Shown: positions 1 to 18,657 of the stretch, piece by piece
How positions within the stretch are numbered: the stretch's first letter is position 1
How the letters are laid out: each line of letters opens with the position of its first letter
From: Hormiphora californensis
Lineage: Eukaryota; Animalia; Ctenophora
Length of the DNA: 18,657 bases
Assembly (NCBI GenBank): GCA_020137815.1
Contig: WFME01000026.1
Coordinates: forward strand, 1-18,657
Reading direction: 5' to 3'
The notes under the pieces: model-generated
Seen by the model: only the letters and a program-made list of their open reading frames with translations
Database searches by the model: none
What the model was told of the DNA's origin: nothing
Made by a program: the position numbers and the translations under genes

Positions 1-8
1 TATTGCGT

Positions 9-2075
9 TCATCTGTGTTCCTTCTTTTCGATTGATTCATCTACAGCGTTCTGTATCTTGTCCTCAAGTGCTGCGAGTTCATCTTGGAAATCTTCAGTTT
101 TTGAGATGTTAACGTTGACAGAAGAATTTGCTCCAAGTCTTGCTTTTAACTTTCGCCTTCTCCTTTTCAGTGGTTCCAAGGGGCTGAATTTTCTCCGCTG
201 AATCTTCTGAGGGGTGTGCTTGATGGTGATTTGCAGAACAGTTAGAATGAAAAGTTCTTTGAATTTGTCACCAACAGGGTCTCCAGACTCTTCACATAAT
301 GTCTGCAGTTCGTCCCAGTCAACAGAAGCAATGTCCACATTCATTTCTTCAAAATTGGCTTTTGGAATGTCCAACCCTCGAAAACTCATGTGGTCCCACT
401 TTTTGATGGTATCTGCTGTCTTCATAAGGGGGTTTATCACCAGGGTACAGTCAACTATTCTGTGGTCAGAGATCTTTGTATCTTCAGTTGTCACAGTTGA
501 TACGTATTGTGGTGAGTTGGTCATTATAACATCCAGAATATTATTGCCTCTGGTTGGTTTGTCAACGACCTGAGTCAGGAAGTTTTCCTCGATGAAGTTC
601 ACAGTTCGTTGATAAGCTGCTATGTTAGCAGCAGCGGACGGTAGGGATTCTTCTTTCCAGTTGAACAATGGCAAGTTTAGATCGCCCATGATAAACATTT
701 CAGGGCTCCTTTCATTGGACAGGAGATCAATTTTATCTTGGAGATCGTTCATAACTGTGATGAAGGACTGGTCAGATGATTCGGGGGGACGGTAGATACA
801 TGAAAACAACATGTTTTTAGCTTTACTAAAAGCCAATACCAGACTGCATTCCCGGTCACTGAATGAGTATGCATAGCTGATTGGGATGTCTTCACGAATG
901 TATTAGGTCATTCGGTAAATATCTGGACAGGTATGTTTGTGAGAGAACGGAGCCAGATAGAGCCAAGCGACCTGTTCCAGCGTCTTCCTTGGACATTTTT
1001 AGGTTGGACTAGGGTGGTGGGAACCTTCGCCTGCTGGCAGTATTGCCTCACGAGCAATATGTTTCAATGCTACTCTAGCTGCCGCTTTATGCTAACTTTT
1101 AACTCAATTTTGGACCAATATGACCTACTTCCGGATAATTCGGAAAGTTTTTAACCCTATATATTGCTTATAAAATGCCTTGAGATACTCCATAAACCTT
1201 CCTGAAATTTTTGGATAAAATTTCTAGCATGGGGAAGCGATTTTCGCTAGATTTGGTAAAGCTAGATTTTAATTTTTTTACAAATGTTGAAAAAAGCCGC
1301 CATGAGCCAGGTATCCATTGACTGATCGTAATAAAACTAACATAGGACCTAGAAAATTTTATAAGCTAACATTTAACGTTGAATTCAAGTCATTTAGACG
1401 TTTAGAACGTACAAAAACGGCCATGAGATGCGCAAGGCGCAATTTTGGCAAAAATCCAATTTTAAAGGATGAAGATGGAATCTAAACACTTCAATTATGG
1501 TTGCATCATATTCAGGCTTAAAAAGTGATATAGGAACACTGGTCAAACCGATCATCTGTCCCCAATAGAGAAAATGCCATGACATATTCAATCATCCGTA
1601 GTGCCACAGTTTTTTCTTGCATAAAGCGGCAGCTAGAGTAGCATTGAAACATATTGCTCGTGAGGCAATACTGCCAGCAGGCGAAGGTTCCCACCATCCT
1701 AGTCCAACCTAAAAATGTCCACGGAAGACGCTGGAACAGGTCGCTTGGCTGTATCTGGCTCCGTTCTCTCACAAACATACCTGTCCAGATATTTACCGAA
1801 TGACCTAATATAACACACAACCTCCTCCTTTCCGATCAGGACGGTCAGAACGGAAGGTGCTGTATCCCTGCATTTTGATTTGGGCGTCTGCAATGTAGTT
1901 TTTCAACCATGACTCAGTTATTGCAAGGGCAACTGTCGGCGGTGAGTTTGGGTTGTTAAGCAAAACAGCCTCGATGAAGGGGAGTTTCCACCGAGTGTTC
2001 CCCCCAGCGGCCGGTGAAATACTTCTCCCATTTAGTAGGATAATCTTTGAGAGGGCAGTATAGTCGAATGTTTTA
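9..2075 (-). pseudogene. LINE ORF2 N-terminal APE (EEP) endonuclease, CR1/L2/Jockey-group, split by a MITE (pieces 1811-2075 and 9-902)
   Basis: After excising 903-1810 the frame reads KIILLNGRSISP...ALAITESWL...GYSTFRSDRPDRKGGGCVL|YIRED...CIYRPP...MGDLNLP...FLTQVVDKPTRGNNILDVIMTN...SDHRIV, which are canonical APE motifs. A stop at 9-11 comes before any RT domain. Confidence 0.93.
903..1808. mobile_element. MITE with 190-bp TIRs and TA target-site duplication (Tc1/mariner-type target)
   Basis: 903-1092 is the reverse complement of 1619-1808 (3 mismatches seen). TA at 901-902 and 1809-1810; removing the element restores the APE frame. Confidence 0.95.
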
Positions 2076-2914
2076 TTTAAGCGACAGGCCGCCGCGCACT
2101 CAATTAGTTAATTGGTCATATCTCCGGTTCCTGATGAGATAAAGACTCGATCCTGGTTGCGTTGGAAAGATAACATTTTTATCTTTCCAATGGCACCAAG
2201 AAAAAGTCGCTAGCTTATCAGGAACCGGAAATCGATTTCAAGCGCTGCATTTTGATGCGCGGCGGCCTGTCGCTTAAATAAAAAATTGGACTTTATTTGG
2301 GTCGGTAGTTGCCGATGTACTCCTTGAGTCATTGATATTCCTGTGGGTAGAGTGTACTGTACTGGCGGGTGTGCTTGTAAGTGGTGGGCCAGTTGGTTGT
2401 GCAGCATTGACTCGTTGTGGGTTGGACCAAGCTGGGAGAGAATTTCTTCCATTCTGTCCGCTTGCATCAGTGATTCTTCTCTCGCATTCCTGACCTCCTT
2501 CAAAACAATGCTCAGAAAACCCGATTGTAAGTGTCCAGGGTTTTGCTGCGAAACTGGTCGCAATGGTGAGCCGCTAAGAGGGAGTTGTTCATCCTGCACT
2601 CTCTCTCTGTGGTCAGTGGCGTGAGTGTTAGGTTGCTGTGTTGTCCTAACAACTTCCTGACGTTCTCGCCTTTCAGGGTTTTCCACTTTCCTTCGTGTAC
2701 CCTTGAGGTGGAGATGTGGGCAATCAGGGTTTAGGCACTGCCGCTCCTTCATTCTCCGCTGTGAGCCCTCACATAATTTTGGATGCAGTTTTGAGCACTT
2801 TGCACCCAACTTACACCCATGGCGTGAGTGAGATCCGTACAGCTTGAATTTTCTGCAGACTTTACGGTGGGTAAAACGGCAGGTTTTCCCATTCACTTCC
2901 TTTTTCCCGGATAC
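2032..2914 (-). pseudogene. LINE ORF1 C-terminal part with tandem CCCH-type zinc fingers, 5'-truncated by Penelope and interrupted by the MITE
   Basis: SGKKEVNGKTCRFTHRKVCRKFKLYG...GCKLGAKCSKLHPKLC...CLNPDCPHLHLKGTRR. With the MITE excised the ORF ends ...SNFLKHSTILPSQRLSY* (TAA at 2032-2034). It lies directly upstream of the APE on the same strand. Confidence 0.8.
2076..2278. mobile_element. Small ~200-bp foldback MITE, TA TSD
   Basis: TIR tttaagcgacaggccgccgcgca / tgcgcggcggcctgtcgcttaaa; internal inverted repeats ccggttcctga/tcaggaaccgg and ttggaaagata/tatctttccaa; TA at 2074-2075 and 2279-2280. Confidence 0.85.
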
Positions 2915-3765
2915 AAGAGAAGAGGCAACAGAACCAGCAATAGGAGTCTCCAAAATCTCTTTTCTCGACCTGACCGTTAGAACCACCAACAACGGAGGAG
3001 AAACATCTCTAACGTGGGAACTCTTTCAGAAGAGCACCCACAGTGGAAGCTACCTCAACTATCACTCCCACTGTGCAGAAGTTATAAAACTAAATATAAT
3101 CCGCACAGAAACAAAACGCATCCTCAACAGGCGTTCCACAGTTGACCTAGCATTCCCTCACCTTGAAAAACTGAGGGAAAATCTAGTCAACTCAGGCTAC
3201 CCGATAAAAACTGTTAGCTTGGAAATTGCGAAGCACCCGACTACAAGCCCGGCTCCACCAGATGCTGAAAAATCCAACAAAATATACATCATGAAACTGT
3301 GGTAACATCTTCGGGAAGGACTATTGCCAGCATGGTGAAAAACCATTACAACATCAAAGAAGAAAATAGTCAAAACTGTGAATGGCATTCACTGAATGCG
3401 AGCTGCATCAACATGGCATTCCATGCTCGACGGAAAACGTAGTGTACCGTGTACCGTGCAACCTATGCAACAACGGTACCTCCATAGGTGTGACGAGCCG
3501 CCCACTGAAACACCGGATCGCCGAGCACGAGACTCACACCAGACTGGGACATGTGGACTGCTCCGCAGTAGCAGAACATGCTAATGAGATGCACCCGGAG
3601 CTCATATACGGACAAGCAGGGAGAAGGGAATACGATGCCTTCTTCAATATTTTCAATTTTGATATAATAAATAAGGGTAGAGACCCCATAGACGCCTATC
3701 TCAGAGAGATTACACGACTAAGGCCACCACTGAACAAAATGTGCAACAACGGGTTCATTTTTTAG
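2914..3765 (+). mobile_element. Penelope-like retroelement fragment: RT thumb region plus GIY-YIG endonuclease, disrupted
   Basis: ISFLDLTV...FQKSTHSGSYLNYHSH...NLVNSGYP (RT C-terminus), then CSTENVVYRVPCNLC...IGVTSRPLKHRIAEH...SAVAEH...RLRPPLN (GIY-YIG). The linker is broken by a stop and frameshift. Confidence 0.9.
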
Positions 3766-4158
3766 TATTTTGTTGTAATAATTTCATGTGTAAATTAATG
3801 TAAATAAGATTTTTTTTGAAGGAGCAGTATCGTGGATTCGGTTGGTTGTTGTTTTTGGCTTCTGTTCATGTTGTGTGTGTTTGCCGTTTGGTCCAGTCTT
3901 TTACAATTTTGTGGTACCTACCTGCAGTACCAATACCTCCTGTACCAATACCTCCAGTACCGAATAGGTACTGGACGTATTGGTACAGAGGGCAGAAAGG
4001 AGGGGTCAAATGCCCTGTTTACCAACGATAGGTTAATGAGATCTCGTTGGTACATAGGGCATTTGACCCCCCTATTTCACCCTCTGTACCAACGAGTACA
4101 TACCAACCGTACCAATATGACATTCATGGTGAATAGTATGTAAAAATACTGTTCAATT

Positions 4159-5156
4159 GGAAATACATTTAGCTGAATGGTAGTTGCATAGATCTCGAAC
4201 TTGGGTTAATTCATTGCCAGAGAATTGCTATTAACCAGCACGACTCCAAACCGTTGGAACCATGTCATGGATGTAGGTGTGATGGGATAGGAGTAAGAAA
4301 TGAGCTCCTCTCCTCCGTTTCGTAGTGTTCTGTTGTCCTCAAACGAGCCTTGCAGCCTTGGGTCCGTTTTTTGTTGCAGTACCAGTATACCACTAACTTT
4401 TTTTGTTGCAGTACCACTAACGCTCCTGACTTTAGTGCTCTTGGTCTCCCGTCTCTCACAAAAAGTTGTCCCCCAACGGCTAATTGCTTCCCACCGCTAT
4501 TTCCAAGAACGACATTAACAGTATCGTCTTGCGGAAGTACTTCTTCAACTGAAAGATGAAGTTGTTTAATTCAACTGTAACTGCAGTAGCTAACTGTGCC
4601 ACATAAAGTGAGAGCGCCTTTGCTATTACACGAAGACCAAGCCCCAATCGGCCATCTCGTATTGCTAATTGGAGTTACACACTGCAACCCGAGGAGCTGT
4701 ACGCTAACACCAAGTCCAACTAACCGAAGCTAAGGGCGTATGCTATGGGGGGAGGGTGGATTCAAATTGGAGTGATAAGAAAGTAAACACTTACGATGTT
4801 CGTTAGCGGCAGAAGTAGCAGAATAATCATTTGAAATCGGCACTGAAGGTGATTCTGCATCTAACTCCAAAATCGATGCAACGTCAAAAGTAGGGCTAGG
4901 ATTGACTGTACCGCTTACTTAGGCTATCATAATCAGCAAACTGGGAAGGCGGTTCAATGATACCGGATCGCGTCTAGTCAATATTATGACATGGCTCCAA
5001 CATAATTTCACATATCACAATGATACCGGATCACGTCTAGTCCAATTTTAAACAGTTAATTAGCTTTGAAGTCGAGCTGGTTAATAGCAATTCTATTGCA
5101 ATGAGTTAACCCAAGTTCGAGATCTATGCAACTACCATTCGGCTAAATACATTTCC
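4159..5156. mobile_element. Non-autonomous MULE-like element with ~92-bp TIRs
   Basis: 4159-4250 (ggaaatacatttagctgaatggtagttgcatagatctcgaacttggg...) is mirrored at ~5065-5156. It carries a FLYWCH-like remnant and an internal 25-bp direct repeat (4955-4979, 5018-5042). No clean TSD found. Confidence 0.75.
4265..4570 (-). pseudogene. FLYWCH-type zinc-finger remnant (MULE transposase N-terminus)
   Basis: GNSGGKQLAVGGQLFVRDG...VVYWYCNKKRTQGCKARLRT...PSHLHP fits the F/Y..YWxC..C..HxH pattern. It contains a small internal duplication and no DDE core. Confidence 0.7.
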
Positions 5157-5326
5157 AGGACAAAATAATCTAAAATAAACAAAAATGAAATTTATTAAAA
5201 CAATACCTTTAACTTATTAAATATTACCTAATTTATTATCTACATTACCCTATTGATTGATTTAGTATGACTCTGCGGCGTAAGCGTCTACTTAGACCTG
5301 CCTCTAATCTGCTCTATATACACTTA

Positions 5327-7037
5327 CAGGCAATTTTGCATTTGCGGGCATCGCACTATAGACGCAGTACCCACGTACTATAGACGCATTATAAACGCAT
5401 TATAAACGCATTATAGACGCATTATAGACACACGCATTATAGACGCAATTTCGTAAGCAGCACTATAGACGCAATATAGACGCATTATAACAGCAATATA
5501 AACGCATTTTTATAGACGCGACGCAGTATAGCCGCATTATAGGCGCACTACCCACCCCAAAATCACCTTATAGACACACTATAGACGCATTATAGACTGA
5601 CTATAGCAGCACCATAAACGCTACATAGACCCATATAGACGCATGATAGAAGCATTATAGACGCAAATCGCTTTTTATAGACGCCGCGTCTATAAAAACG
5701 TGCTTTTTTAAGAAGCACTATAGACGTACTCAGACGCACGCTGCCATATTTGAGGCGCAGTTGGGCGAACTATAAACGCATTTTTGTCGCATATAAAAGG
5801 AAGCAGTATAGACGCATTATAGACGCATTATAGACGCATGTGCGCGATATCGATAAAGACGCAATATAGACGCAATTAATAAGAAGGAGAGGGAGAGAGA
5901 CTAGATCAGGGAGGGAGAGAGGGAGGGAGAGGGAAGGAGAGGGAAAGAGGGAGGGATACAGAGACAGATCAGACAGAGACAGATGGACACAGATCTGAGA
6001 CAGACGGACAGAGTAAGAGGGAGGGAGGGAGGGAGAGGAGGGAGGGAGAGGAGGAAGGGAGAGGAGGGAGGGAGAGGAGGGAGGGAGGGAGAGGGAAGGA
6101 GAGGGAGGGACTGAGGGAGGAGTACAGGGACAGAAACAGACGGATAAAGACCTGAGACAGAAGGACAGAGTAAGATGGAGAGAGATTAAGATGGAGAGTG
6201 GAGAGAGAGAGTGAGACAGAGAGGGAGATAGTAATTAAGCGCGTGTTTGTCCGTCCGTCTGTCTCTGTCCGTTTGTTTCCATCTCTGTCTTTTTCTGTCT
6301 CACTCTTTTTATGTCTCACTCCGTCCCTATATCACTATCTTTCCATCTTACTCTCTTTCCATCTTACTCTGTCCTTCCGTCTCAGGTCTTTATCCGTCTG
6401 TTTCTGTCCCTGTACCCCTCCCTCAGTCCCTCCCTCTCCTTCCCTCTCCCTCCCTCCCTCGCCTCTCTCTCCCTCTCCTTTTTATTTTGCGTCTATATTG
6501 CGTCTTTATCGATTTCGCACACATGCGGCTATAATGCGTCTATAATGCGTCTATACTGCTTCCTTTTATATGCGACAAAAATGCGTTTATAAAACGCCCA
6601 ACTGCGCCTCAAATATCGCACTGTAGCCTGGAGTACGTCTAAAGTGCTTCTTTAAAAAGCACGTTTTTTATAGACGCGGCGTCTATAAAAAGCGATTTGC
6701 GTCTATAATGCTTCTATCATGCGTCTATATGGGTCTATGTAGCGTTTATGGTGCTGCTATAGTCAGTCTATAATGCGTCTATAGTGCGTCTATAAGGTGA
6801 TTTTGGGGTGGGTAGTGCGCCTATAATGCGGCTATACTGCGTCGCGTCTATAAAAATGCGTTTATGTTGCTGTTATAATGCGTCTATATTGCGTCTATAG
6901 TGCTGCTTATGAAATTGCGTCTATATTGCGTGTGTCTATAATGCGTCTATAATGCGTTTATAATGCGTTTATAATGCGTCTATAGTACGTGGGTAATGCG
7001 TCTATAGTGCGATGCCCGCAAATGCAAAATTGCCCTA
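5327..7037. mobile_element. 1.7-kb foldback element; arms built from tandem TATAGACGCA subrepeats around an AG-rich/CT-rich centre
   Basis: Termini caggcaattttgcatttgcgggcatcgcac / gtgcgatgcccgcaaatgcaaaattgccct. The arms mirror each other for about 550 bp, and ~6070-6190 mirrors ~6340-6460. TA on both flanks. Confidence 0.9.
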
Positions 7038-7155
7038 TATACAGGGACTTATATATATTTATATTTTTATGTGTGCTACTTTTCCTGTATATATTGCAGA
7101 TTAGTTTCAAATCAAATCAATTAAACAGTATTATTTTTTTTACATACTATTCACC

Positions 7156-7271
7156 TAGTTGTCTCATATAAGACCGTCCTCTTCGCACCTAGCGGCTACG
7201 TGAGGCCGGTGCGAAGAGGACGGTCTTATATGTGCACCGAGGTTGCCTGGTGTACAGTCAGTGTCTGCCAA
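7156..7271. mobile_element. Short hAT-like MITE with 8-bp TSD TATTCACC and a 25-bp perfect hairpin
   Basis: TATTCACC at 7148-7155 and 7272-7279; hairpin arms 7165-7189 and 7208-7232; the uninterrupted site survives in the opposite arm of the host element (~4128-4158). Confidence 0.75.
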
Positions 7272-7418
7272 TATTCACCATGAATGTCATATTGGTACGG
7301 TTGGTATGTACTCGTTGGTACAGAGGGTGAAATAGGGGGGTCAAATGCCCTGTGTACAAAATTGAATCACACCCGCAGTACCAATACCTCCTGTACCAAT
7401 ACCTCCAGTACTGAATAG

Positions 7419-7457
7419 CATTATTGATAATGGCCGTACAGCCGAAACGTCTAAATG
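7419..7457 (+). ncRNA. Minimal type-I hammerhead ribozyme motif of Penelope type (U3-A8 core variant)
   Basis: UUGAUAA (7424-7430), U, GGC-cguaca-GCC (stem II), then GAAACGUC (7444-7451) with palindromic ACGU stem III. Stem I (CAUUA/UAAAUG) is imperfect. Confidence 0.6.
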
Positions 7458-7722
7458 AGCGTCTTCGATGTCATGTCACACCCGCCAACACCATTGGTGT
7501 GAACAATGAAACCAAGAAATAATACCCCATCAGCCTCCACCATCTCCAAACTCTGAAAATAGGCTGTAGCAAAAATATGAATTCGACTTTAGGGCTAAAA
7601 TTGCATATTTGAGGTCCATTTTGTATGACCTAAACCTTAGTAAAGTCATTTGGTTGGGCACTCGATGATGAAAAACGCCAGGTGTACCCTTATTATTAAA
7701 CAGGAGTTCCCCGAGAGTAATA

Positions 7723-7843
7723 ATAATATCTCAGTGATGGATGTGTCGATTTTGAGCGGCAAAAAGGCAAAATGCTCATAGAACTAATCTCTACAACCTC
7801 CAACAAACTTGTCCAATTCTGATTCTGTCCACTCTCACTTTAA
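7723..7843. mobile_element. Kolobok-like element end (TTAA target), copy 1
   Basis: Ends ...ctctcact-TTAA (reverse complement TTAA-AGTGAGAG); ~120 bp shared with 9462-9585. Confidence 0.6.
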
Positions 7844-7861
7844 ATTGTGTTGATTTTCCGG

Positions 7862-8064
7862 GTACCAAAACTCCAACTGTAGGAACCGTTTTCGGTAAAG
7901 ACAAGCAATGGCAGCAGCAATCCACTGGACTGTCCGATTCCACATTTAGTGATCTCTTGTCCAGTGTCAACTTTACTTCAAACCAGCCGCCAGCCAAGCC
8001 TGCCACCCTTCAAGAGCAGAGAAGGGATGAACTAGAAAAAACAGTTGATCCCGTAAAACTGAAG
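7862..8064 (+). CDS. GAK: Auxilin/GAK exon just upstream of the J-domain (5' boundary uncertain: 7862 or 7883)
   Basis: ...STFSDLLSSVNFTSNQPPAKPATLQEQRRDELEKTVDPVKLK resembles the auxilin/GAK segment FEDLLS..GF....KTIAEMRK..LAK..DPLKLK as I recall it. Phase-0 GT donor at 8065. Confidence 0.85.
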
Positions 8065-8237
8065 GTACAGTAGAGACAGCGTGTTTATAGATTTAGCAGG
8101 CTTTTCCATCCCCCGCCCCGAAAAAGTGGGCCTGCTAGTCAACAGCATAGATATCAACAATAACTTTATGTTAGTATAATTTGTTATGTTCTAACCCTCC
8201 TTTACATTTGTAAACACAGTCTAGCTAGGCAAAGTAT

Positions 8238-8439
8238 AATTATACCAAAACTAATTGAAATTAGTAGGCCGGAAAGGTTGCCCTATGATTTGAGCTACCT
8301 TCTCCACCGTAACATTCACGGGGTACAGACAGGGTATGGCAGATGCTTACTTCAAAAGGGAATGTACTGGTGCCAAAGGTAGCTCAAATCATAGGGCAAC
8401 CTTTCCAGCCTACTAATTTCAATTAGTTTTGGTATAATT
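8238..8439. mobile_element. Foldback/MITE with 64-bp inverted arms
   Basis: 8238-8301 is the reverse complement of 8376-8439 (1 mismatch), with a 74-bp spacer. Confidence 0.75.
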
Positions 8440-8475
8440 TGCATCATTTTTGGGATTTTTATTCATTTAGATGTA

Positions 8476-9214
8476 GGGTAAGCTGGGGTGAAATGGCCCG
8501 CGGGGTAAAGTGGCCCATGTATGGGGCAAAGTGGCCCTAGTTATTACATGTGGTCACGTGACTTTTTCTCCAGCGGAGACCTGCTCGTTCTGTTCCGAAT
8601 TTTCGCTTTGAAACTGCTGTCATTTCTGTTTGGGTTGGCCGATTTTAATTTTGCAAAAACTGCCAGTTAGGCTTTATAATTCTCTAAAACGTGGTATAAA
8701 AATTTTTGAAGAAATTGGCATTTTTGTTGTCTTAATTGTCAATTTTGTGAAATCGGGGCGAATATGGCCCACTCTCCGGGGCAAAGTGGTCCGGTCCGGG
8801 GCAAAGTGGCCCACCTCTAGGACCAATGAAATGGCGCCTGCAATACCACGTGATATTGGAATGCACAAAAATGTAGTACAGACAAAGTGGCCCATGTTCC
8901 GGTGCAGAACATGGGCCACTTTGCCCCTAGTTTGATCGTTTCGTCTAACAACACCAGGCACGTGATAAAATCGAGCAATGCTATTGGCTTGGGCCACTTT
9001 GCCCCGGTGCAAATTTTCCAAAAAACGCCTCACCAAATTATTTGAATTGATTAATTAACCCATTAAATAAAACTTGTAAATATTAAAATTTAGCTCGGCT
9101 GAAAGGAAAAGGTTTCATTGGATAGCCTATATAATTTTTTTCTTCCTGCTGTATAAATTGCGTATTTTAGAACCTAAAACGTTAAAAGTGGGCCACTTTT
9201 ACCCCAGCTTACCC
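8476..9214. mobile_element. TA-TSD MITE (pogo/mariner-like) with GGGGCAAAGTGGCCC subrepeats
   Basis: TA-gggtaagctggggt ... accccagcttaccc-TA, with many internal copies of the motif in both orientations. Confidence 0.9.
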
Positions 9215-9267
9215 TAGTAGAACAGGTACAGAGAGGATGGAAACGAGAAATTGAGAAAATTTCATTT

Positions 9268-9329
9268 TGACGTCATTTTGACGTCATAAAATGACGTCAC
9301 GACGTTATGACGTCACAATTATGACGTCA
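9268..9329. repeat. Cluster of five perfect TGACGTCA palindromes (CRE consensus)
   Basis: TGACGTCA at 9268, 9279, 9292, 9308 and 9322, plus one degenerate copy at 9300; probably internal to the Kolobok-like element. Confidence 0.85.
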
Positions 9330-9461
9330 TATCATCGGGATTACCTAGATGAAGATACTGACCAAGTTTGAGATCAATTGGATAAGATTTGAGCCCGCTA
9401 TGGCGAAAAAAAAACCATATCGTCATATCTATTTTTAAACACTTCAGACGCGTTTTAATAT

Positions 9462-9585
9462 AATAAAAATATCTCAGTGATAGATGGGTCGATTTTGAGC
9501 GGCAAAAAGGCAAAATGCTCATAGAAATAGTCTCTACTACCTACAACAAACTTGTCCAATTCTGATTCTGTCACTCTCACTTTAA
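9462..9585. mobile_element. Kolobok-like element end (TTAA target), copy 2
   Basis: Highly similar to 7723-7843; TTAA at 9582-9585. Confidence 0.6.
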
Positions 9586-9601
9586 AATCACACAGTATAT
9601 A

Positions 9602-9775
9602 CACTGTGAGCAAGCGGGTGGTTTTTTTTCGGGAGATTTTTGTCGAGATTTTTTTCGGGATGGATGGGGCCACCTTTGCGCTTGCCAGCGTAGTGATATA
9701 CGCTGTTAGCAAGCGTTTTTTTTTTCGGGGGATGGATGGGGCCACCCGGTCACATTTGCTCTTGTCAGCGCAGTG
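9602..9775. mobile_element. Two tandem tiny CAC...GTG-ended elements (9602-9695, 9701-9775), Transib-like
   Basis: Unit 1 cactgtgagcaagcg...cgcttgccagcgtagtg is flanked by ATATA on both sides (5-bp TSD); unit 2 is a diverged copy. Confidence 0.6.
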
Positions 9776-9861
9776 ATTTTTCAATGCAACTTAAGTTTGC
9801 ACCGAAAGTATGTAGTGCGATGTTGTTTGAGTTCACACCGGTGTTATAATCTACTTAAAAC

Positions 9862-10150
9862 TTGTCTCATATAAGACCCTCCTCTTCGCACCCCAAAAGG
9901 TCTACTTGGATCTGAAACGTGCCGCAAAAACCAAATGCTATCGCTCGCCAACTCTTCTCTCTCTATAGCCTAAATGCGTCTCTCACGCACCGTGGGAAAG
10001 TCGCGAGAAGCTTTTTTACAAGAACGAGTGCTTCTAAAGAGTTGAAACTGTGTATATGCCGCGTGTTGATCTTTGTGCGTGCTAAAGCTGTGTCTGGGGT
10101 CTGACTGTGCATCGAGGTTGTGCGATGTACAGTCAGTGTCTGACAACCTA
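9862..10150. mobile_element. Longer relative of the 7156-7271 element
   Basis: Shares the 5' block ttgtctcatataagacc.tcctcttcgcacc and the 3' block tgtgca.cgaggttg...tgtacagtcagtgtctg.caa. Confidence 0.7.
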
Positions 10151-10182
10151 AAACCCTGTAATAGGAAATACTTCATCTGCAG

Positions 10183-10359
10183 ATAATGGACTGGACGCGT
10201 GGAAAAGAAAAGAATATCCGAGCCCTCCTCTCAACACTGGGAGATGTGTTATGGGACGGTGAGACGAGATGGCCCAAACCAGGCATCCATGTTATGGTAG
10301 ACGCTGGTCAAGTTAAGAAAATGTACAGGAATGCTAGTCGAGTTGTCCATCCTGATAAG
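10183..10359 (+). CDS. GAK: Auxilin/GAK J-domain exon (through HPDK)
   Basis: ctgcag|IMDWTRGKEKNIRALLSTLGDVLWDGETRW...QVKKMYRNASRVVHPDK|gtaatg; 177 nt, phase 0/0; matches the auxilin signature GKERNIRALLSTL..VLW and HPDK. Confidence 0.96.
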
Positions 10360-10425
10360 GTAATGACACATTGACGGTTTCCGTGTTTCTTGTTGAATAA
10401 GGGATTTCACCCCTCTACACTATAT

Positions 10426-10460
10426 CACTGCGCTGGCAAGCGCAAAGGTGACCATCCACT
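10426..10460. mobile_element. Orphan terminus of the CAC-ended family
   Basis: tatat-cactgcgctggcaagcgcaaaggtg is the reverse complement of 9671-9700 (1 mismatch); no partner end found. Confidence 0.6.
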
Positions 10461-11536
10461 CCCCCAGCTGTGCGTGCCTGAAAGCAGTAATAAGTATTTT
10501 CAGTTTTTAGCCAAAATAGCATTTTGCGACACCCATAGCGAGGCCCCCACTGCACCAATCGGTCTGAAATTTGGTTTAAAGTGTCACATTATGTCACATT
10601 ATGTAATAGGGGTGGCTAATGTTACCTCACCATTTTTTGAATTTTGAGGTAACTTTGGACGAGGTGCCAAAGTTACCCCACACTACAGGTTTTAAACGTG
10701 TGATGTCTGTAGAGTTGCCTTAGACCCTCTCTGAATTGTTCAAGAGATTCCAAGATTCAGCCCATTTTCATCCATCTATTCGATAGGTTAGTGAAAAAAA
10801 CTAGGATTTTGACTATTTTATGGAGCTAAATCACAGAAATCCGGCCTGAAACCCATCAAACTTCAACAATTAGGAGTTCCTCACTCATCCTGTAGCTTGT
10901 TAGATGGTAATGGCTCTCTAGGCGAGTGCTCTAGTTCTTGTAGACAATCTATGCAGGGGCACAGATACCAAAACTCCTTTATTTAGCCAGTACCCATAAG
11001 TAGACCACTTAAAAGGCTAAAACACACTCTTATACTGGTTGTAAGCTAAATTTGTTTCACTCATTAATAATAACAATTCAATTATATTTAATACTTACCC
11101 TTGATTCCCAGTTCCCCACCTCCAGCTTCCTCCCCCATGAAACATACCCCGAATTTAAGGTCATGTCGACTGTTAGGTAGATGTTAAGATCAGTTATAAT
11201 TCACATCTGTGGTGCGGGTCCACCATCTTGTTTCAAACTGTTCAACACCACTCCAAACCTTCAATTTGAGTACAATGTAAGAGTGAAAGCTATGTGTGGA
11301 AGAAGGACAGTTACTGTAAAGATAAAGAAGAGAAAGGGGCCCACACCACAGTAGCGAATTAAGTTATGTCGTGTAAGGCTTTCCAGAGATGGTCTTTCAG
11401 TCTAGAGGAAAATAAATGGTGTTCAGCTGTATTTCTCAGTTCTTTAGGAAGTAAGTAAGCGGGAGGACTTCAGTCACGTGTTTTCCGGTTCAGAGTTCCC
11501 CTATCCTCTCCTACCCCCTCCCTCGTGCCCCCCCTC

Positions 11537-11567
<31 letters not shown>

Positions 11568-11667
11568 TCTCTCCCCTATCTCTCTCGCTACCGTCATTGT
11601 GTCAAACTGACAGTGTCGGCAGGAGCAAGCCTCTCTCTCTCCCTCTATCTCTCTCTCTCTCTCTTTC

Positions 11668-11732
<65 letters not shown>
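11537..11732 (+). repeat. Interrupted (CT)n microsatellite
   Basis: Directly visible, with a break at ~11585-11630. Confidence 0.97.
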
Positions 11733-11735
<3 letters not shown>

Positions 11736-11802
11736 TCTTTTATCTCTATCTCTCCCCTGCCCTCTTATTCTTTTCCTCCCCTTCTTAGTCTATCGCTCAG
11801 CA

Positions 11803-12206
11803 CTTGACATGATGCAGTCTCGACCACACCGCACAGACCAACGGGTATGGCACCTGCACAGCGGTGTCATACCGGTTTTCTGGGCACGTCACCCCCTAGA
11901 CTCGGAAAGAGAGGTCGAGGCGGTCATGTTCAAGTTCACCCCGCTAGCCAGCGACGTATAGGGTTGTGCCGTCGTACCGGAAGCCTCTCAAGCTTGCTTG
12001 CCAAAGCTTGTGAATCACGCTGCATACCCGTATTCTCTTGTCGGGGTATGACCAGGATGAGCAGGCGTCGGTCTTAAAACATCGGGGGCAAGCAAGTGGC
12101 ATCGGAAGTTCTTAGTCTCACAAGGGCTCTGAACTCAGTACACTCAGCCCCGGTGATACCAGGGGCACGGAGAAGTTGCGAAAAAAAAAGAAAAAAAAAA
12201 AAAAAA
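11803..12206 (+). mobile_element. GC-rich, highly structured poly(A)-tailed retroposon (SINE-like or LINE UTR)
   Basis: A-tract at 12181-12206; at least six stems, several with G-U pairs; abuts and truncates the opposite-strand LINE at its WN codons. Confidence 0.6.
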
Positions 12207-12867
12207 GTTCCACTCAAGGTGGCAGCGGTAAAAGTAACAGTTTTTGAACAGGTCTACTCTGGGTTGTTCGGTACATATAATGTGTCTCGTTTTGTTTGTT
12301 GTCTGCTGGCACGTCTGTCTGTAATTCCGGATTGTATTTTTGTAGGAAAGATGGGAGTTTTATAGGAGACGTCTCATAGAATATTTTATGGAACAATTTA
12401 AGATCATTATATTGAAATTTTTGAATCATTGGGAGTACGTCAATCTCCCTGAGTTTCTTTATATACGTATCTAAACTATAACTGGTATCTGTTTCACCGA
12501 ATATCCATTTTGTGGCACGTTTCTGGAGTCGTTCAAACTTAAGCAGACTTGACTCACTTTGTGGACGCCATATTTGGCTACAGTGTTCGAACAAAGATCT
12601 AACTAGACTAATGTAGAAGTTCTTCTTTTTAAGGGGACATTTAACTAATACACCTACATGCTTCACCAGTCCTAATCTTTGAGAAGCTTTGGAAACAACA
12701 TTTTTCTGGTGTTCGATTGGCGACAACTTGTGATTAGTTGAGACTCCTAGATCAACTTCATTTTCACATAATTTGATTTCATCTCTGCCTAGGTGATAAT
12801 TTAATTGACGTTGTTTAATAATTTTAGTACACCTAAGCAGCTTACACTTTTTAGGATGGAATATCAT
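12207..12867 (-). pseudogene. LINE ORF2 C-terminal (post-RT) fragment, CR1/L2-group
   Basis: FHPKKCK...EVDLGV...VVSKASQRLG...YISLVRSLFEHCSQIWRP...ERLQKRATKWI, then frameshifted FKNCYFYRCHLEWN. Confidence 0.9.
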
Positions 12868-12870
12868 AAT

Positions 12871-13954
12871 ATTGGGTGCGCCTCAAGTAAGGGCTTTCTG
12901 ATAATCCACCCGGCTTCGCCGTGTTGCTCATTTCGCCACTTTCAACGTCAATAACACGGTTGCCATGGCAACTGAATTGGTAACTATGTGGACTGGTAGG
13001 GTAAACCGGGGCAATTCGAACAACCGGGGCAATTCGAACATAGTACTGCCCGTCTCTCACCTAGTTAAGCTATCATAATGACGTCATCCTATCTCCAGAA
13101 GAAAACTGATCGTTCGAGCCTGCCCGTTACCACTAAATAGGCTCTAGATCCGGTTTAAGTTGGTCAATTTCCGATTTGAAAAAACCAGCTGAAAGCTAAT
13201 AATATCAGCTTTCAGATGGTATAAAAATTATTTAAATATTCGCATGTTTTCATTCCAAATTCTGGTAAATTAAGATTACCGGGGCAATTCGAACAACCGG
13301 GGCAATTCGAACATGGGCAATTTGGCTAACACACCGGGGCAATTTGGTTAACTCCCGGGCCAATGATGTGCAGTTCTTTGTACCACGTGATCACGCGTGA
13401 TACCTGGGCAATTCGAACAAGAACGACCAGCGTGTAGATTGCGTGTAGATTACATTGTTCGAATTGCCCCCACCTCTAACAACACCAGGCGGGAATCTTC
13501 TTCTGGTGTTGTGAGGACGTTCACGTGACTCCCACGTGACGAAATAAAGCACTCCTATTGGTGTTGTCCGAATTGCCCCGGTACCATTTTTTCCGACCAA
13601 AATTTTTGAATTAGTTATTTAGTTAAGTAAATGATGGTCCCTAGAGTTGAAATTTATCTTATTTGAAAGATAAAATAATGAACTTTAATCCTATATAATT
13701 TTTTTCATTGTATCTTTTTTTAAATGGGAGTGAGAACCGATTAAGTAAAAAGTTAACCATTTTGCCCCGGTTTACCCTATGTTAAAAGTCATTCGAAAAT
13801 ATTAAGAAACTTCCACTGGAAGTTCCAAAAGTGTGAATAACAGCTTTGCAGCTTTGGGCACATAAAGTGTTTTATAAAGGAGTAGTCTGTCGCTTAGATA
13901 CCGCTGAACGAACGGCCACCACTTCGACGCGACAACTCCAAATTATAATATAGA
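12871..13954 (-). mobile_element. Non-autonomous Helitron copy 1 (3' end clipped, interrupted by the 779-bp MITE)
   Basis: 12871-12998 plus 13780-13954 align to the copies at 14624 and 14935. Confidence 0.8.
12999..13777. mobile_element. 779-bp TA-TSD MITE with CCGGGGCAATTCGAAC subrepeats, copy 1
   Basis: TA-gggtaaaccggggcaa...ttgccccggtttaccc-TA; the empty site ggactgg(c/t)atgttaaaa is seen in the other Helitron copies. Confidence 0.96.
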
Positions 13955-14260
13955 CAAGGTCATAAAATATGCATGGGAGTTGAGGAGAGAAAAAGTAGGC
14001 ATAAAGTTAGAGACCAACACTATAAGAAACGAAAAAGAATTTTCGTCAAATTCTTAGTGACCACCAAAAGGCCACTGTGAGGGGGGAGGGTTATAGAAAG
14101 AGAAACATAAAGTCTTCCTAATCCTTGCCATGCTGAGGTATTAAAGACTATTCTGTGATTTTTTCCCCGCTCGGGTGAATGCCGAAGGCATTCACCCGGA
14201 TGCCTTTTGTAAAAAGGCATAGGGGTTTAGAATTCTACAAGTTTACATACTAGTGAGATG

Positions 14261-14340
14261 TCATGGTCACAAAACTGGCTGTAACACGCTCAGTTGCGAG
14301 GGACAACGGTGTTGCTCCTTCAACAAATACTTCAATGGCA
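14261..14340 (+). repeat. 80-bp dispersed direct repeat, copy 1
   Basis: Similar to 15375-15454 (core ggctgtaacacgctcagttgcgagggacaacgg is identical). Confidence 0.85.
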
Positions 14341-14344
14341 ACCC

Positions 14345-14445
14345 GACCAAGATTGCTGATTGAGCTCACACACAATGTGTGTCACACATGTGCGAGCTCG
14401 AATGCTCGATCTCGGTCGCTGCGCACTAGGTGTCAATGTCACCAA
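14345..14445. mobile_element. Partial copy of the 16516-17417 outer element lacking its inner insertions
   Basis: cgaccaagattg...gagctcacacac...gagctc...gatctcggtcgctg...gcactaggtgtcaatgtcaccaa matches both arms of that element. Confidence 0.75.
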
Positions 14446-14623
14446 CAGTCATTATTATAGTATTTGAAACTGTGACTAACCAATAGGATCTGTTCAGCTA
14501 GAACAGCTTTTAGAACTACCTTCGGGCACGAAGAAGGGTATTTTACCCTGGGTAGCTGTCAGGCCAATGCTCTGACAGCTGGGTAGCTATAATGATACAA
14601 TTATATCTCCTAATATATATATA

Positions 14624-14934
14624 CTAGCGCACCCATTGGGTGCGCCTCAAGTAAGTGCTTTTTGATAACCCACCCGGCTTCGCCGGATGGTTCTTTTCGC
14701 TCCTTTCAACGTCAATAAAACGGTTGCCATGGCAACTGAATTGGTAACTATCATGGGGACTGGCATGTTAAAATTCATTCGAAAATATTAACAAACTTCT
14801 ACTGGAAGTTCCAAAAGTGGGAGCAACAGCTTTACAGCTTTGGGCGCAAAACATATTTTATGAAGGAGCACTGTCGCGTAGATACCGCTGAACGAACGGC
14901 CACTTCGACGTTCATCTCCAACTTATAATAGAGA
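14624..14934 (-). mobile_element. Non-autonomous Helitron copy 2
   Basis: On the - strand: 5' TCTCTATTATAA, 3' hairpin gcgcaccca-a-tgggtgcgc running into CTAG, followed by T. Confidence 0.88.
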
Positions 14935-15238
14935 CTAGCGCACCCATTGGGTGCGCTCAAGTAAGGGCATTTTGATAACCCACCCGGCTTCGCCTGGTGG
15001 TTCTTTTTGCCCCTTTCAACACGGTTGCCATGGCAACTGAATTGGTAACTATGGGGACTGGCATGTTAAAAGGCATTCGAAAATATTAATCAACTTCCAC
15101 TGGAAGTTCCAAAACTGTGAGTAACAGCTTTACAGCTTTGGGCACATAGAGTGTTTTATGAAGGAGCACTGTCGCTTAGATACCGCTTAACGAACGACCA
15201 CCACTTCGACGTCGTTCATCTCCAAATTATAATAGAGA
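14935..15238 (-). mobile_element. Non-autonomous Helitron copy 3, head-to-tail with copy 2
   Basis: A|TC at its 5' end; exact CTAG|TC junction at 14935/14934. Confidence 0.88.
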
Positions 15239-15374
15239 TTGGTTTGAGAGCATCATGATGCATCAAGCTCCATCATGATGATAACCATCAGTGTGTGCGC
15301 TTCTTTGATGGTGAACATCAAAATCTCCGCACACTGACCTGATTATTATCATCACGATCAGTATGCTTATAGCC

Positions 15375-15454
15375 TCACGGTCACAAATCCGGCTGTAACA
15401 CGCTCAGTTGCGAGGGACAACGGCGTTGCTCCTTCATCAAATATTTCAATGACA
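15375..15454 (+). repeat. 80-bp dispersed direct repeat, copy 2
   Basis: See 14261-14340. Confidence 0.85.
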
Positions 15455-15645
15455 CGTTTCCAGGAAATGTGAGCCGTGCAATGTGGCGTGCAATTTAGTG
15501 CTACTAAAACACGAAGATTTGTTCTATACGGTTTGAGAGATTCATAAATGACCGGAAATGTCTGTTTGCCTTCACATTAGATGGTTATAAAAAAGGTTGG
15601 CAGGGAAACATAGCATTATGAAAAATAATGCAGTTATTCTTGATA

Positions 15646-16424
15646 GGGTAAACCGGGGCAATTCGAACAACCGGGGCAATTCGAACATAGTACTGCCCGT
15701 CTCTCACCTAGTTAAGCTATCATAATGACGTCATCCTATCTCCAGAAGAAAACTGATCGTTCGAGCCTGCCCGTTACCACTAAATAGGCTCTAGATCCGG
15801 TTTAAGTTGGTCAATTTCCGATTTGAAAAAACCAGCTGAAAGCTAATAATATCAGCTTTCAGATGGTATAAAAATTATTTAAATATTCGCATGTTTTCAT
15901 TCCAAATTCTGGTAAATTAAGATTACCGGGGCAATTCGAACAACCGGGGCAATTCGAACATGGGCAATTTGGCTAACACACCGGGGCAATTTGGTTAACT
16001 CCCGGGCCAATGATGTGCAGTTCTTTGTACCACGTGATCACGCGTGATACCTGGGCAATTCGAACAAGAACGACCAGCGTGTAGATTGCGTGTAGATTAC
16101 ATTGTTCGAATTGCCCCCACCTCTAACAACACCAGGCGGGAATCTTCTTCTGGTGTTGTGAGGACGTTCACGTGACTCCCACGTGACGAAATAAAGCACT
16201 CCTATTGGTGTTGTCCGAATTGCCCCGGTACCATTTTTTCCGACCAAAATTTTTGAATTAGTTATTTAGTTAAGTAAATGATGGTCCCTAGAGTTGAAAT
16301 TTATCTTATTTGAAAGATAAAATAATGAACTTTAATCCTATATAATTTTTTTCATTGTATCTTTTTTTAAATGGGAGTGAGAACCGATTAAGTAAAAAGT
16401 TAACCATTTTGCCCCGGTTTACCC
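15646..16424. mobile_element. 779-bp TA-TSD MITE, copy 2
   Basis: Same length and, by eye, identical to 12999-13777 (offset 2647); different flanks and its own TA TSD. Confidence 0.96.
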
Positions 16425-16561
16425 TATTTGATACGAAGTGAAGGATTGACAGTAACCTAAACTTCGGGTGGCACGCGAGTTTTGCACGTGTATGATCTAA
16501 GCGCTCCTACTACACTTGGTGACATAGACACCGTGCGCGACCAAGATTGAGCTCACACACA

Positions 16562-17348
16562 GGTGTCTGCTCCGCCCCAAAAAGGGTCGTTTCTTTCAAG
16601 GGATGTTGCACGCGATCCACTGGACCGATTTGCATCCGGTTTGTCGCAAAAGACTACAAATGATCCTAATATACTGGAAAATACCCGAGAAGTTTGTCTG
16701 TCAACAGGAAGTGGGTCAAAATTGACACTGAAGTCAAACCTATAATCTGGCTTCCGAGACTTTCTGCACTACGCCCATGCGATATAGAAGATATTGGGAG
16801 ATATGTTGATGCAATTAGCATCAGCTATTAATGCCGGGTATTTTCCAGTACTCACAAGAGTTCAACCTATCTTCTGATACCCTCCGATTCATTCTAACAG
16901 TGGTCATCCGACATAATTGCCATATCTCGACGTGAACTTCGACGTGGAATTCGACGAGGAATAGAAGGCGTTTGTAGTTATGAACGCCTGCTGTGCGCGG
17001 CACATTGGAACGTGCGGCATGGGCAGCAGGCGTTCATAACTACAAACGCCTGCTATTCCTCGTCGAATTCCACGTCGAATTTCACGTCGAGATATGGCAA
17101 TTATGTCGGATGACCACTGTAAACCGTCTGCGAGTGGTGCAAAAAGGCTCAGAAGCCAGATTACAGATTTGACTTCAGTGTCAATTTTGACCCACTTCCT
17201 GTTGACAGACAAACTTCTCGGGTATTTTCCAGTATATTAGGATCAATTTGTAGTCTTTTGCGACAAACCGGATGCAAATCGGTCCAGTGGATCTCGTGCA
17301 ATTTGGCTTGAAAGACACGACCCTTTTTTAGGGTGCGGAGCGGACACC
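16562..17348. mobile_element. MITE with ~210-bp TIRs inserted at the centre of the outer element's palindrome
   Basis: ~16562-16770 mirrors ~17138-17348; flanks are CA and TA within gagctcacaca-TA-tgtgtgagctc. Confidence 0.85.
16898..17119. mobile_element. 222-bp MITE with 96-bp TIRs and TAA flanks
   Basis: 16898-16993 mirrors 17024-17119; TAA at 16895-16897 and 17120-17122. Confidence 0.9.
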
Positions 17349-17462
17349 TATGTGTGAGCTCGATCTCGGTCGCTGCACGACCTCGATCTCGCACGCACTA
17401 GGTGTCAATGTCACCAACTACTACACGTCTGCACGACGTTGTGCGAAGGAAGACCAAAAAGC

Positions 17463-17764
17463 GGTAAGTCGGAAGAACGTGTCCGTTTGTCTCATGAGCG
17501 CTAATGAGTGTATCATGAGACATATGTCTCATGAGACGTCAGAGTTATGGTTAGGGTTAGGGCTATCCCTTAGGCCTAGGGCCCCCTACTCCGTAGGGGT
17601 AGGGTTAGGGTTGAACCATAGGCTTAGACCTAGCCCTACCCTCTACGGGTCCATAGACTCACGAGACATTGAAACAGAGATGGGATGAGACATATGTCTC
17701 ATGAGCGCTCATGAAACACTCATGAGCGCTCATGAGACAAACGGACACGTTCTTCCGACTTACC
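17463..17764. mobile_element. Inverted-repeat element with TCATGA palindromic subrepeats and internal TTAGGG-like motifs
   Basis: ggtaagtcggaagaacgtgtccgtttgtctcatgagcgct is mirrored at the right end; ggttagggttaggg at ~17549; A-rich flanks; no clear TSD. Confidence 0.8.
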
Positions 17765-17962
17765 CTAACCAAAAAAAAACTAACAATACCAACAAACAAA
17801 ATAATATTTGTTGTTGGTCGTCTAGTCCATACTACAACCAACATGAGACCCCCTCCCATATTCCTAACAACCCAATCAAAATACGCATGGCGCCACGCTC
17901 GGGTACTTTAGCAAACAATAACATACCCGTACTTTTTATAAGGTGCTCTGTAACAATTGCAT

Positions 17963-18147
17963 GTCTTTAGAGAGCTAGGGGTGCAAAAGAGCGCGCAAAG
18001 GACTAGCATCTCCTGTTATATGAATTACAGGGAGAGATCGCATTGCAGTAACACGTGATTTTTTATTTCTAATGTAGGTAATTCACTGTTGTGAGCATTT
18101 CCACTCAGAGCTAGCGCAACATCTTTGCATCCCTAGCTCTCAAAGAC
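17963..18147. repeat. Degenerate foldback/MITE
   Basis: gtcttt-agagagctaggggtgcaaa versus tttgcatccctagctctc-aaagac. Confidence 0.55.
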
Positions 18148-18421
18148 GCTCAATTGTTAGTCGTGCATCTTCCGAGAAGACAGCATCACAGTGGTGCTCT
18201 GTCATATTGGCCACACGCACAGTATCCTCCATGCATGTATGCATGCTTTTTTTGTGCTGTGAACCACGTTGGGAACGACGCATGGGGGGGGGGGGGGTTA
18301 TTTCGTAACCAAGGTCCAAGGGGCTGTATGCGTGGTCAATATGACGGAGCAACACTGATATGTAGCACATGAATCACAGATTAAAGAAAAGTTCATCATC
18401 ATGCAATATTGACCAGGAAAG

Positions 18422-18427
18422 TTTATT
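18422..18427 (-). terminator. Polyadenylation signal AATAAA for the auxilin/GAK last exon
   Basis: AATAAA on the - strand, 18 nt after the TAA stop. Confidence 0.55.
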
Positions 18428-18445
18428 AATTTTGGGAATTTTGGG

Positions 18446-18541
18446 TTATCTCAGTAGTTCAGCCTCTTCAAATGAACTGTAAGCATCATTCAGTTCCGTT
18501 TGTATAGCCTTAGCTAAGTCCTCGTGATCTGTTCCAACTTG
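18446..18541 (-). CDS. GAK: Auxilin/GAK terminal coding exon (end of J-domain) on the minus strand
   Basis: tatatttcag|QVGTDHEDLAKAIQTELNDAYSSFEEAELLR*; resembles the post-HPDK segment of auxilin/GAK (G..YE..AKMIFMELNDAWSEFE); phase 0; too short for the ORF track. Confidence 0.92.
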   Translation of the reverse strand, partial: QVGTDHEDLAKAIQTELNDAYSSFEEAELLR

Positions 18542-18657
18542 CTGAAATATACGGTTTATGAGTGATAAACACTGAACAGGAGTCAAGACTCAGGAAGAAA
18601 GGTAGATAGAAGAGAGAGAGAGAAACGGAGAGAAAGAAACGGAATCCCTTGCACTTA

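Follow-up and report, generated by a model that had tools for sequence, protein, structure and literature searches.

The window (the whole stretch analysed, 18,657 nt of Hormiphora californensis contig WFME01000026.1) contains three segments, 7882-8064 (+), 10183-10359 (+) and 18541-18446 (-), which are the final three exons of a GAK/auxilin gene from a ctenophore, here called exons A, B and C. A tblastn search with the Mnemiopsis leidyi GAK protein P0004 matches exons A and B on the plus strand and exon C on the minus strand, which agrees with the auxilin/GAK identity given in the original prediction. As in GAK/auxilin of M. leidyi (KAL5251139.1), exons A-C encode the end of the C-terminal linker and the auxilin-type J-domain with its HPD motif, but the Hormiphora record has the final exon on the other strand. 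The kinase and PTEN-like/C2 domains are present in the best relatives (P0004-P0006); the GAK exons for those domains fall outside the window, and tblastn found no earlier GAK exon in 1-7881.

Exon A (7882-8064, GTVFGKD…DPVKLK) matches P0004 with an E value of 1e-15. It starts in phase 1 and ends in phase 0, with DPVKLK finishing at 8064 ahead of gtacag. The exon had been proposed to start at 7862, but there is no AG ahead of that position. The canonical AG is at 7880-7881, and a contig from run X6 (probable RNA) aligns to 7881-8032 and carries 91 further letters beyond its 7881 end. Since the AG is at 7880-7881 and the alignment ends at 7881, the most likely first base of exon A is 7882. The intron between exons A and B (8065-10182, +) has GT-AG ends and is filled with multi-copy elements, including a terminal-inverted-repeat element at 8476-9214. 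Exon B (10183-10359, IMDWTRG…VVHPDK) encodes the J-domain helices up to the HPD motif and ends in phase 0 at the donor gtaatg. It is 85% identical to M. leidyi GAK, and its match to DnaJ is weak (E 0.006, under the cut-off). Translation and splice signals thus bear out the two phase 0 exon ends first described, DPVKLK and VVHPDK followed by gtaatg.

Exon C (18446-18541, -, QVGTDH…ELLR-stop, phase 0) encodes the helix after HPD. The minus strand from 18541 to 18446 translates as QVGTDHEDLAKAIQTELNDAYSSFEEAELLR-stop. The 3' end of the preceding intron (18542-18657, -) has the acceptor tatatttcag and a CT-rich tract, and 116 bases of it are within the window. An AATAAA (18427-18422, -) is located about 20 nt past the stop codon. 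The match of exon C to P0004 is 77% over 30 aa (tblastn E 3.7e-9 in the window), and the claim that this segment is the missing piece, with acceptor, matching phase, stop and AATAAA, holds. The intron position and phase after HPDK are the same as in relatives, where 8 genomic ORFs run from HPDK into V. The mean identity of exon C to 7 relatives is 0.77, and the corresponding values for the relatives are 0.73-0.79. Since exon C is no more diverged than the exons of its relatives, it was functional until now. The auxilin-type J-domain fold is known. Relative P0007 matches auxilin J-domain structures (PDB 1xi5, 1nz6 and 2qwo; E 3e-35), and through P0007 the homologous part of exon C aligns to the bovine auxilin J-domain. 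The HPD motif thus belongs to a C-terminal J-domain of the auxilin type.

Exon B and the stop codon of exon C are 8.1 kb apart. A degenerate exon C motif (up to 3 mismatches) has a single match in the window, on the minus strand, and 0 of 200 shuffles match. Low-stringency tblastn of 10360-18657 reveals no plus-strand remnant of exon C (best plus-frame E 9.6), as expected from the earlier statement that the plus strand holds no continuation. A blastn search of the window for further copies of exons A, B and C found none.

Contigs from 4 of 22 runs were compared with 7600-12170. Runs X2, X3 and X7 are DNA and X6 is probable RNA; the small-share runs X8-X20 were left out. The results rest on listings of 40 out of 95 differing letters, 15 out of 102 joints, 24 out of 1214 loose ends and 32 out of 23344 pieces. 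Among these, the X6 contigs match the plus exons without a difference and end at 7881 and 10359, while the DNA contigs continue through. Because the X6 contigs end at the exon A acceptor and the exon B donor, exons A and B appear to be spliced in this probable RNA. The X6 contig over exon B aligns to 10220-10359 and has 7 letters over; these letters are unseen, the first differs from the G of the intron, and the donor appears spliced. The locus is polymorphic in the species, with allele-specific contigs and indels. DNA contigs from two samples cross from 10360 to about 10560, and X7 pieces extend to 10691. None of the joints listed for these short contigs in 7600-12170 (15 of 102) switches strand.

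Exon B is covered by one contig in X2 and one in X3. At 90% likeness the bin 10201-10353 has a single-contig depth of 76.6 in X2 and 556.7 in X3, which is near the exon A depth (65.7 and 538.9), although depth is no copy number. With the same limit on depth, the exon B bin is about twice as deep as the allele-like contigs in X3 (196 and 277). That exon B is covered by just one contig in both of these DNA runs argues against a second, diverged copy. The suggestion of a convergent tail-to-tail duplicate, in which a partial plus-strand copy is next to a whole minus-strand GAK with its exons B' and A' right of 18657, is therefore very unlikely. It would fit the mere 116 bases visible upstream of exon C and the lack of an earlier GAK exon in 1-7881; the probable RNA contigs, which match the plus exons exactly, count against it along with the depth of exon B. 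An identical, recent or private duplicate may be present.

Full-length gene models ending in the equivalent of exon C are found on long genomic contigs for P0004 (M. leidyi, 14.6 Mb), P0006 (662 kb) and P0008 (160 kb). These are ordinary gene models, and judged from the models rather than the DNA, the exons are probably in line in all three. Since the models of the relatives include the last exon, they indicate that the split gene is not an old ctenophore feature and that the arrangement is not conserved in relatives. Three protein searches returned no protein carrying the window's own exons joined, a weak null because gene calls for the species may be absent. The best match to exon B was 92%, among 14 of 19 candidates; the other searches covered 14 of 16 and 1 of 3 candidates.

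The 8 kb spacer (10360-18421) is almost all repeats in self-BLAST and probably contains the left breakpoint of a flipped block. A TA-flanked terminal-inverted-repeat element of 784 bp at 15644-16427 (+) is a candidate flip site. It is identical to a copy at 12997-13780, 2.6 kb away, and over 787 aligned bases the sole difference is one flank base. The element at 16516-17417 has an intact insertion site with a 9-bp target duplication, and the element at 12997-13780 has an intact insertion site within a continuous 300-bp unit, so the flip is not in these two elements. The spacer also holds a 124-bp CT array. Rfam gave 0 matches, and Pfam gave 1 match (an endonuclease) for the 10 other ORFs, with no neighbour gene found within the spacer. 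The inverted repeats on either side of exon B, at 9657-9700 and 10421-10463, were rejected as inversion ends, since they would turn exon B, which is collinear with exon A. Between the CT array at 11537-11754 and the AG-rich tract at 18593-18643 there are low-complexity matches only, the longest exact one being 14 nt. A short element starts at 10421 and its far end is absent in the window, but the junction is crossed by contigs of two samples.

Exon C most likely owes its orientation to a flip in the assembly or to inversion of an ordinary gene on one copy. The favoured explanation, which we give about an even chance, is that the block with exon C was flipped during assembly; in the animal exon C is then likely in line and likely joined by normal cis-splicing. 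It is favoured because the models of the relatives are ordinary, exon C is intact, the plus exons look used, no aid to trans-splicing was found and the spacer is dense in repeats. The sequence would turn round at a single place in the interval from about 10560 to 18400, probably within a repeat; an inverted chimeric read could be the cause, or a wrong join made at a near-identical element. The second point would be past 18657 or where the record ends. The flipped block would reach the end of the window, 116 bases beyond the acceptor, and it is possible that the record ends there. One in-place inversion of the exon C block would restore a normal gene. Inverted chimeras and local mis-joins do occur in assemblies, according to the available text of PMC6218980 and PMC13265396. 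In them, as here, forward sequence gives way to neighbouring sequence in reverse, but the window contains no fold-back duplicate. Against a flip, no breakpoint was found in the contigs over 7600-12170 among the joints listed. The window also has no N and the identical 784-bp copies are resolved, which suggests that the record was built from long reads, where 8-kb flips should be uncommon. An assembly flip would make this locus an assembly or annotation flag only, in that gene callers would end GAK at HPDK and leave the J-domain without its completing helix.

It is unlikely that the assembled haplotype carries a real inversion, formed when inverted copies of a young transposon recombined, with no trans-splicing. 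The GAK of this allele would be without the helix after HPD and would be covered by the normal allele on the other chromosome. The identical 784-bp elements indicate a young family near exon C, and the locus is polymorphic. In the available part of PMC8527503, heterozygous inversions are reported as real in at least one ctenophore, Hormiphora; they are Mb-scale and the breaks are between genes, which does not fit a break within GAK. In addition, the inverted partner copy was not found inside the window, and a probable null allele should be rare in a conserved gene. If real on one haplotype, the orientation would be an example of transposon-linked structural load in ctenophores.

It is distinctly improbable that the inversion is common or fixed and rescued in the manner of Caenorhabditis elegans eri-6/7. 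Transcription of the plus strand would then give a pre-mRNA that stops after exon B, and the 5' splice site of this RNA would be joined to the acceptor of exon C, itself transcribed separately from the minus strand. The J-domain of a single GAK gene with an internal inversion would thus come from two trans-spliced convergent pre-mRNAs without long pairing repeats. The acceptor, frame, stop and AATAAA of exon C are all kept, and the exon B donor appears spliced in X6, but this RNA sign is expected equally from a normal allele. Spliced-leader trans-splicing is present in ctenophores (PMC8527503, in part), and a transposon-driven inversion with rescue is described for C. elegans in the available text of 10.1101/2024.01.15.575659. 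In that text eri-6/7 is, as here, one ancestral gene that is part-inverted in transposon-rich surroundings and continuous in relatives. Its parts are head to head, however, whereas those of GAK are convergent, and its trans-splicing is shown in RNA and aided by direct repeats of ~930 bp, whereas none is visible in the GAK sequence. When the 116 bases upstream of exon C are compared with 10360-18440, no direct match exceeds 10 nt, a length reached by 90 of 200 shuffles. The median trans-spliced share of eri-6/7 in the same source is 10%, which seems low for a housekeeping gene, and the gene models of the relatives, which include the last exon, also argue against trans-splicing.

The original prediction had taken Drosophila mod(mdg4) as the precedent; if trans-splicing is real, eri-6/7 is the closer one. 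In mod(mdg4), too, a 3' exon is antisense to the shared 5' exons, but the available text of PMC4387717 and PMC4667647 describes at least 31 alternative 3' exons, a conserved TSA core and insect-wide conservation. Here alternative 3' exons on both strands are not seen, as the window has one constitutive exon C, and there is no sign of conservation. The TSA core (motif from the accessible part of PMC4387717) has no match within 2 substitutions in 10360-18657; at 3 substitutions there is one match right of exon B, at 15141, among 8 in the window. The old, conserved mod(mdg4)-like form is therefore lowered by the TSA core result and the models of the relatives, while the eri-6/7-like form remains, with no positive support found. 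The four explanations first listed (trans-splicing, inversion, duplicate and misassembly) were the right ones, and the comment that trans-splicing is less common than rearrangement or misassembly was also right. The view that the window cannot rank them stands for trans-splicing, inversion and misassembly, which direct evidence does not separate, but the duplicate is now lowered. No report of exon-to-exon trans-splicing in ctenophores was found in the literature searched. If real and rescued, the locus would provide such a case in a constitutive gene: a core gene of membrane traffic, in an animal lineage that branched early, would be repaired in the manner of eri-6/7. It would also make it possible to test whether spliced-leader lineages tolerate gene-breaking inversions.

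The degenerate exon C motif matched 0 stretches of the metagenome collection. A scan with exon B gave 9 loci from 583 candidate stretches, the best with 81% identity and 0 from Hormiphora californensis. Two of these loci (L001 and L002) are transcript-like, and in both exons B and C are contiguous.

The window encodes the last three exons of a GAK/auxilin gene on both strands. Exon A (7882-8064, +) ends in DPVKLK with a gtacag donor. Exon B (10183-10359, +) follows a ctgcag acceptor, translates from IMDWTRG to VVHPDK and ends at a gtaatg donor. Exon C (18541-18446, -) follows a tatatttcag acceptor and translates to QVGTDHEDLAKAIQTELNDAYSSFEEAELLR and a stop, with an AATAAA beyond it (18427-18422, -). 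Translation of all three places, in which joins A-B and B-C are phase 0 throughout, confirms the original prediction that the last exon is antisense to those preceding it. The absence of a plus-strand continuation was also borne out, as the window holds neither a plus-strand remnant nor a second copy of exon A, B or C. The predicted exon A start at 7862 lacks an AG and should probably be moved to 7882; the AG at 7880-7881 is a better acceptor and agrees with the RNA evidence (an X6 contig edge at 7881). In a search within the window the Mnemiopsis GAK matches exon C (E 3.7e-9), and the exon C motif has a single match, on the minus strand, versus 0 of 200 shuffles; therefore, the identity of exon C is not due to chance.

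Among the matches listed, the closest named protein to exon B comes from M. leidyi (1214 aa, 85%) and carries kinase and PTEN-C2 domains, so the gene is, judged from sequence, a ctenophore GAK/auxilin. The ctenophore-like relative P0007 aligns over its full length with auxilin J-domain structures (E 3e-35), and the exon C counterpart in this alignment is the stretch C-terminal to HPD. HPDK is followed by valine in eight ORFs called on genomic contigs (P0001-3, P0018-20, P0022, P0024), as expected if the relatives share this phase 0 intron. Exons B and C are contiguous in two transcript-like contigs (L001, L002), and three full-length gene models, whose contigs measure 14.6 Mb, 662 kb and 160 kb, finish with the exon C equivalent. 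Because ordinary gene models join their exons in line, we infer from these three that in-line order is the ctenophore norm. The mean identity of exon C to seven others is 0.77 and the relatives' own values are 0.73-0.79, so exon C is by this comparison not decaying; for exon B the mean is 0.81 versus 0.81-0.88. One relative with contiguous B and C (P0017, 82 aa, 2-kb contig) has HSD in place of HPD and may be a processed copy, if not an error. An earlier GAK exon was not found in 1-7881 by tblastn with five full-length relatives; this 7.9 kb upstream of exon A is either a long intron or another break.

Four of the 22 listed sequencing runs, all as short contigs, were compared with 7600-12170. 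X2, X3 and X7, from two samples that are each a possible source of the record, behave as DNA. The exon B bin has the depth of exactly one contig (X2 76.6, X3 556.7), similar to exon A (X2 65.7, X3 538.9), so X2 and X3 contain no assembled diverged exon B copy at least 90% alike, while an identical copy would be hidden. This lowers the possibility of a tail-to-tail duplicate, which we consider improbable. DNA contigs continue past the exon B donor, as far as 10560 in X2 and, through overlapping pieces, 10691 in X7; therefore, the point at which the orientation turns does not lie just behind exon B. Past about 11000 the sequence is multi-copy among the pieces listed. X6 is probably an RNA run (a guessed status; 14 records, low depth). 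Two of its contigs match the window without a difference: one aligns at 7881-8032 and leaves 91 letters over, the other at 10220-10359 and leaves 7. With their coordinates taken in the contigs' own direction, both overhangs fall at exon edges, which points to an mRNA that includes the plus exons spliced on either side, whether in cis or in trans. Each DNA run also has one contig with one base changed and 6 letters missing at 8072 and 8110, which is allelic variation in the intron.

The spacer (10360-18421) is almost entirely repeats. A 300-bp unit occurs three times in it, alongside a CT array (11537-11754), smaller inverted-repeat elements and a 900-bp fold-back element (16516-17417) bordered by a target duplication of 9 bp. 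Two TA-flanked inverted-repeat elements (12997-13780 and 15644-16427), identical over their 784 bp, lie 2.6 kb apart and belong to a very young family. A continuous 300-bp unit surrounds 12997-13780 and the target sites match at 16516-17417, so neither contains a breakpoint; sequence alone leaves the 15644-16427 copy and the CT array as candidate sites. With A and B plus and C minus to their right, a single in-place inversion of the C-containing block restores a normal gene. One end of this block would lie somewhere between about 10560 and 18400, the other right of 18657.

All of the evidence is consistent with one normal GAK gene that is expressed and has its last exon reversed in the record. 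The last exon may have been flipped during assembly, the gene being otherwise normal. We give this an even chance, favouring it because it needs no new biology, the spacer is repeat-dense and the block reaches the window's end; however, no unsupported junction was found among the joints listed in 7600-12170, and the record has the look of a long-read assembly. A true inversion on one haplotype predicts the same data and is unlikely, as is, to a somewhat greater degree, a true inversion rescued in trans, which again predicts what was obtained. These gradings have priors as their main basis. Both inversion readings stay alive because spliced-leader trans-splicing and heterozygous inversions exist in ctenophores, according to the available part of PMC8527503, which describes no case of exon-to-exon trans-splicing. 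Most likely, gene expression in the animal does not involve an opposite-strand last exon.

Trans-splicing of mod(mdg4) depends on a 13-nt TSA core within the last 5' intron (PMC4387717, in part). No such core within 2 substitutions occurs right of exon B, the window has one exon C rather than many alternative 3' exons, and the relatives' gene models show no sign of a conserved arrangement. The predicted GAK/auxilin identity stands; on these three tested features the gene is not of the mod(mdg4) type. In eri-6/7, 10.1101/2024.01.15.575659 describes transposon-derived direct repeats of ~930 bp that promote trans-splicing, a polymorphic inversion and a median 10% of splices in trans. Here, the 116 bases that the window shows upstream of exon C share with the spacer a direct match of at most 10 nt, a length reached in 90 of 200 shuffles. 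The window's end limits this comparison, and the gene may yet be of the eri-6/7 type. The accessible part of PMC4667647 gives insect background only. No report of such an arrangement was found in literature searches on ctenophore trans-splicing and opposite strands, inverted exons in ctenophore assemblies, auxilin trans-splicing, or ctenophore auxilin.

The window also has other repeats. A non-LTR retrotransposon endonuclease ORF (9-902 and 1805-2107, -; Pfam Exo_endo_phos_2, E 8e-9) is interrupted at 903-1808 by a 906-bp element whose terminal inverted repeats are 192 bp long. Two ORFs at 2832-3765 (+) have no Pfam match at E 0.01 and resemble what we take to be a Penelope-like element end. 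A 222-codon frame at 12214-12882 (-), also without a Pfam match, is presumably similar to a LINE reverse transcriptase C-terminus. In the large fold-back at 5350-7020, opposed arrays of an 11-bp unit flank purine-rich and pyrimidine-rich tracts.
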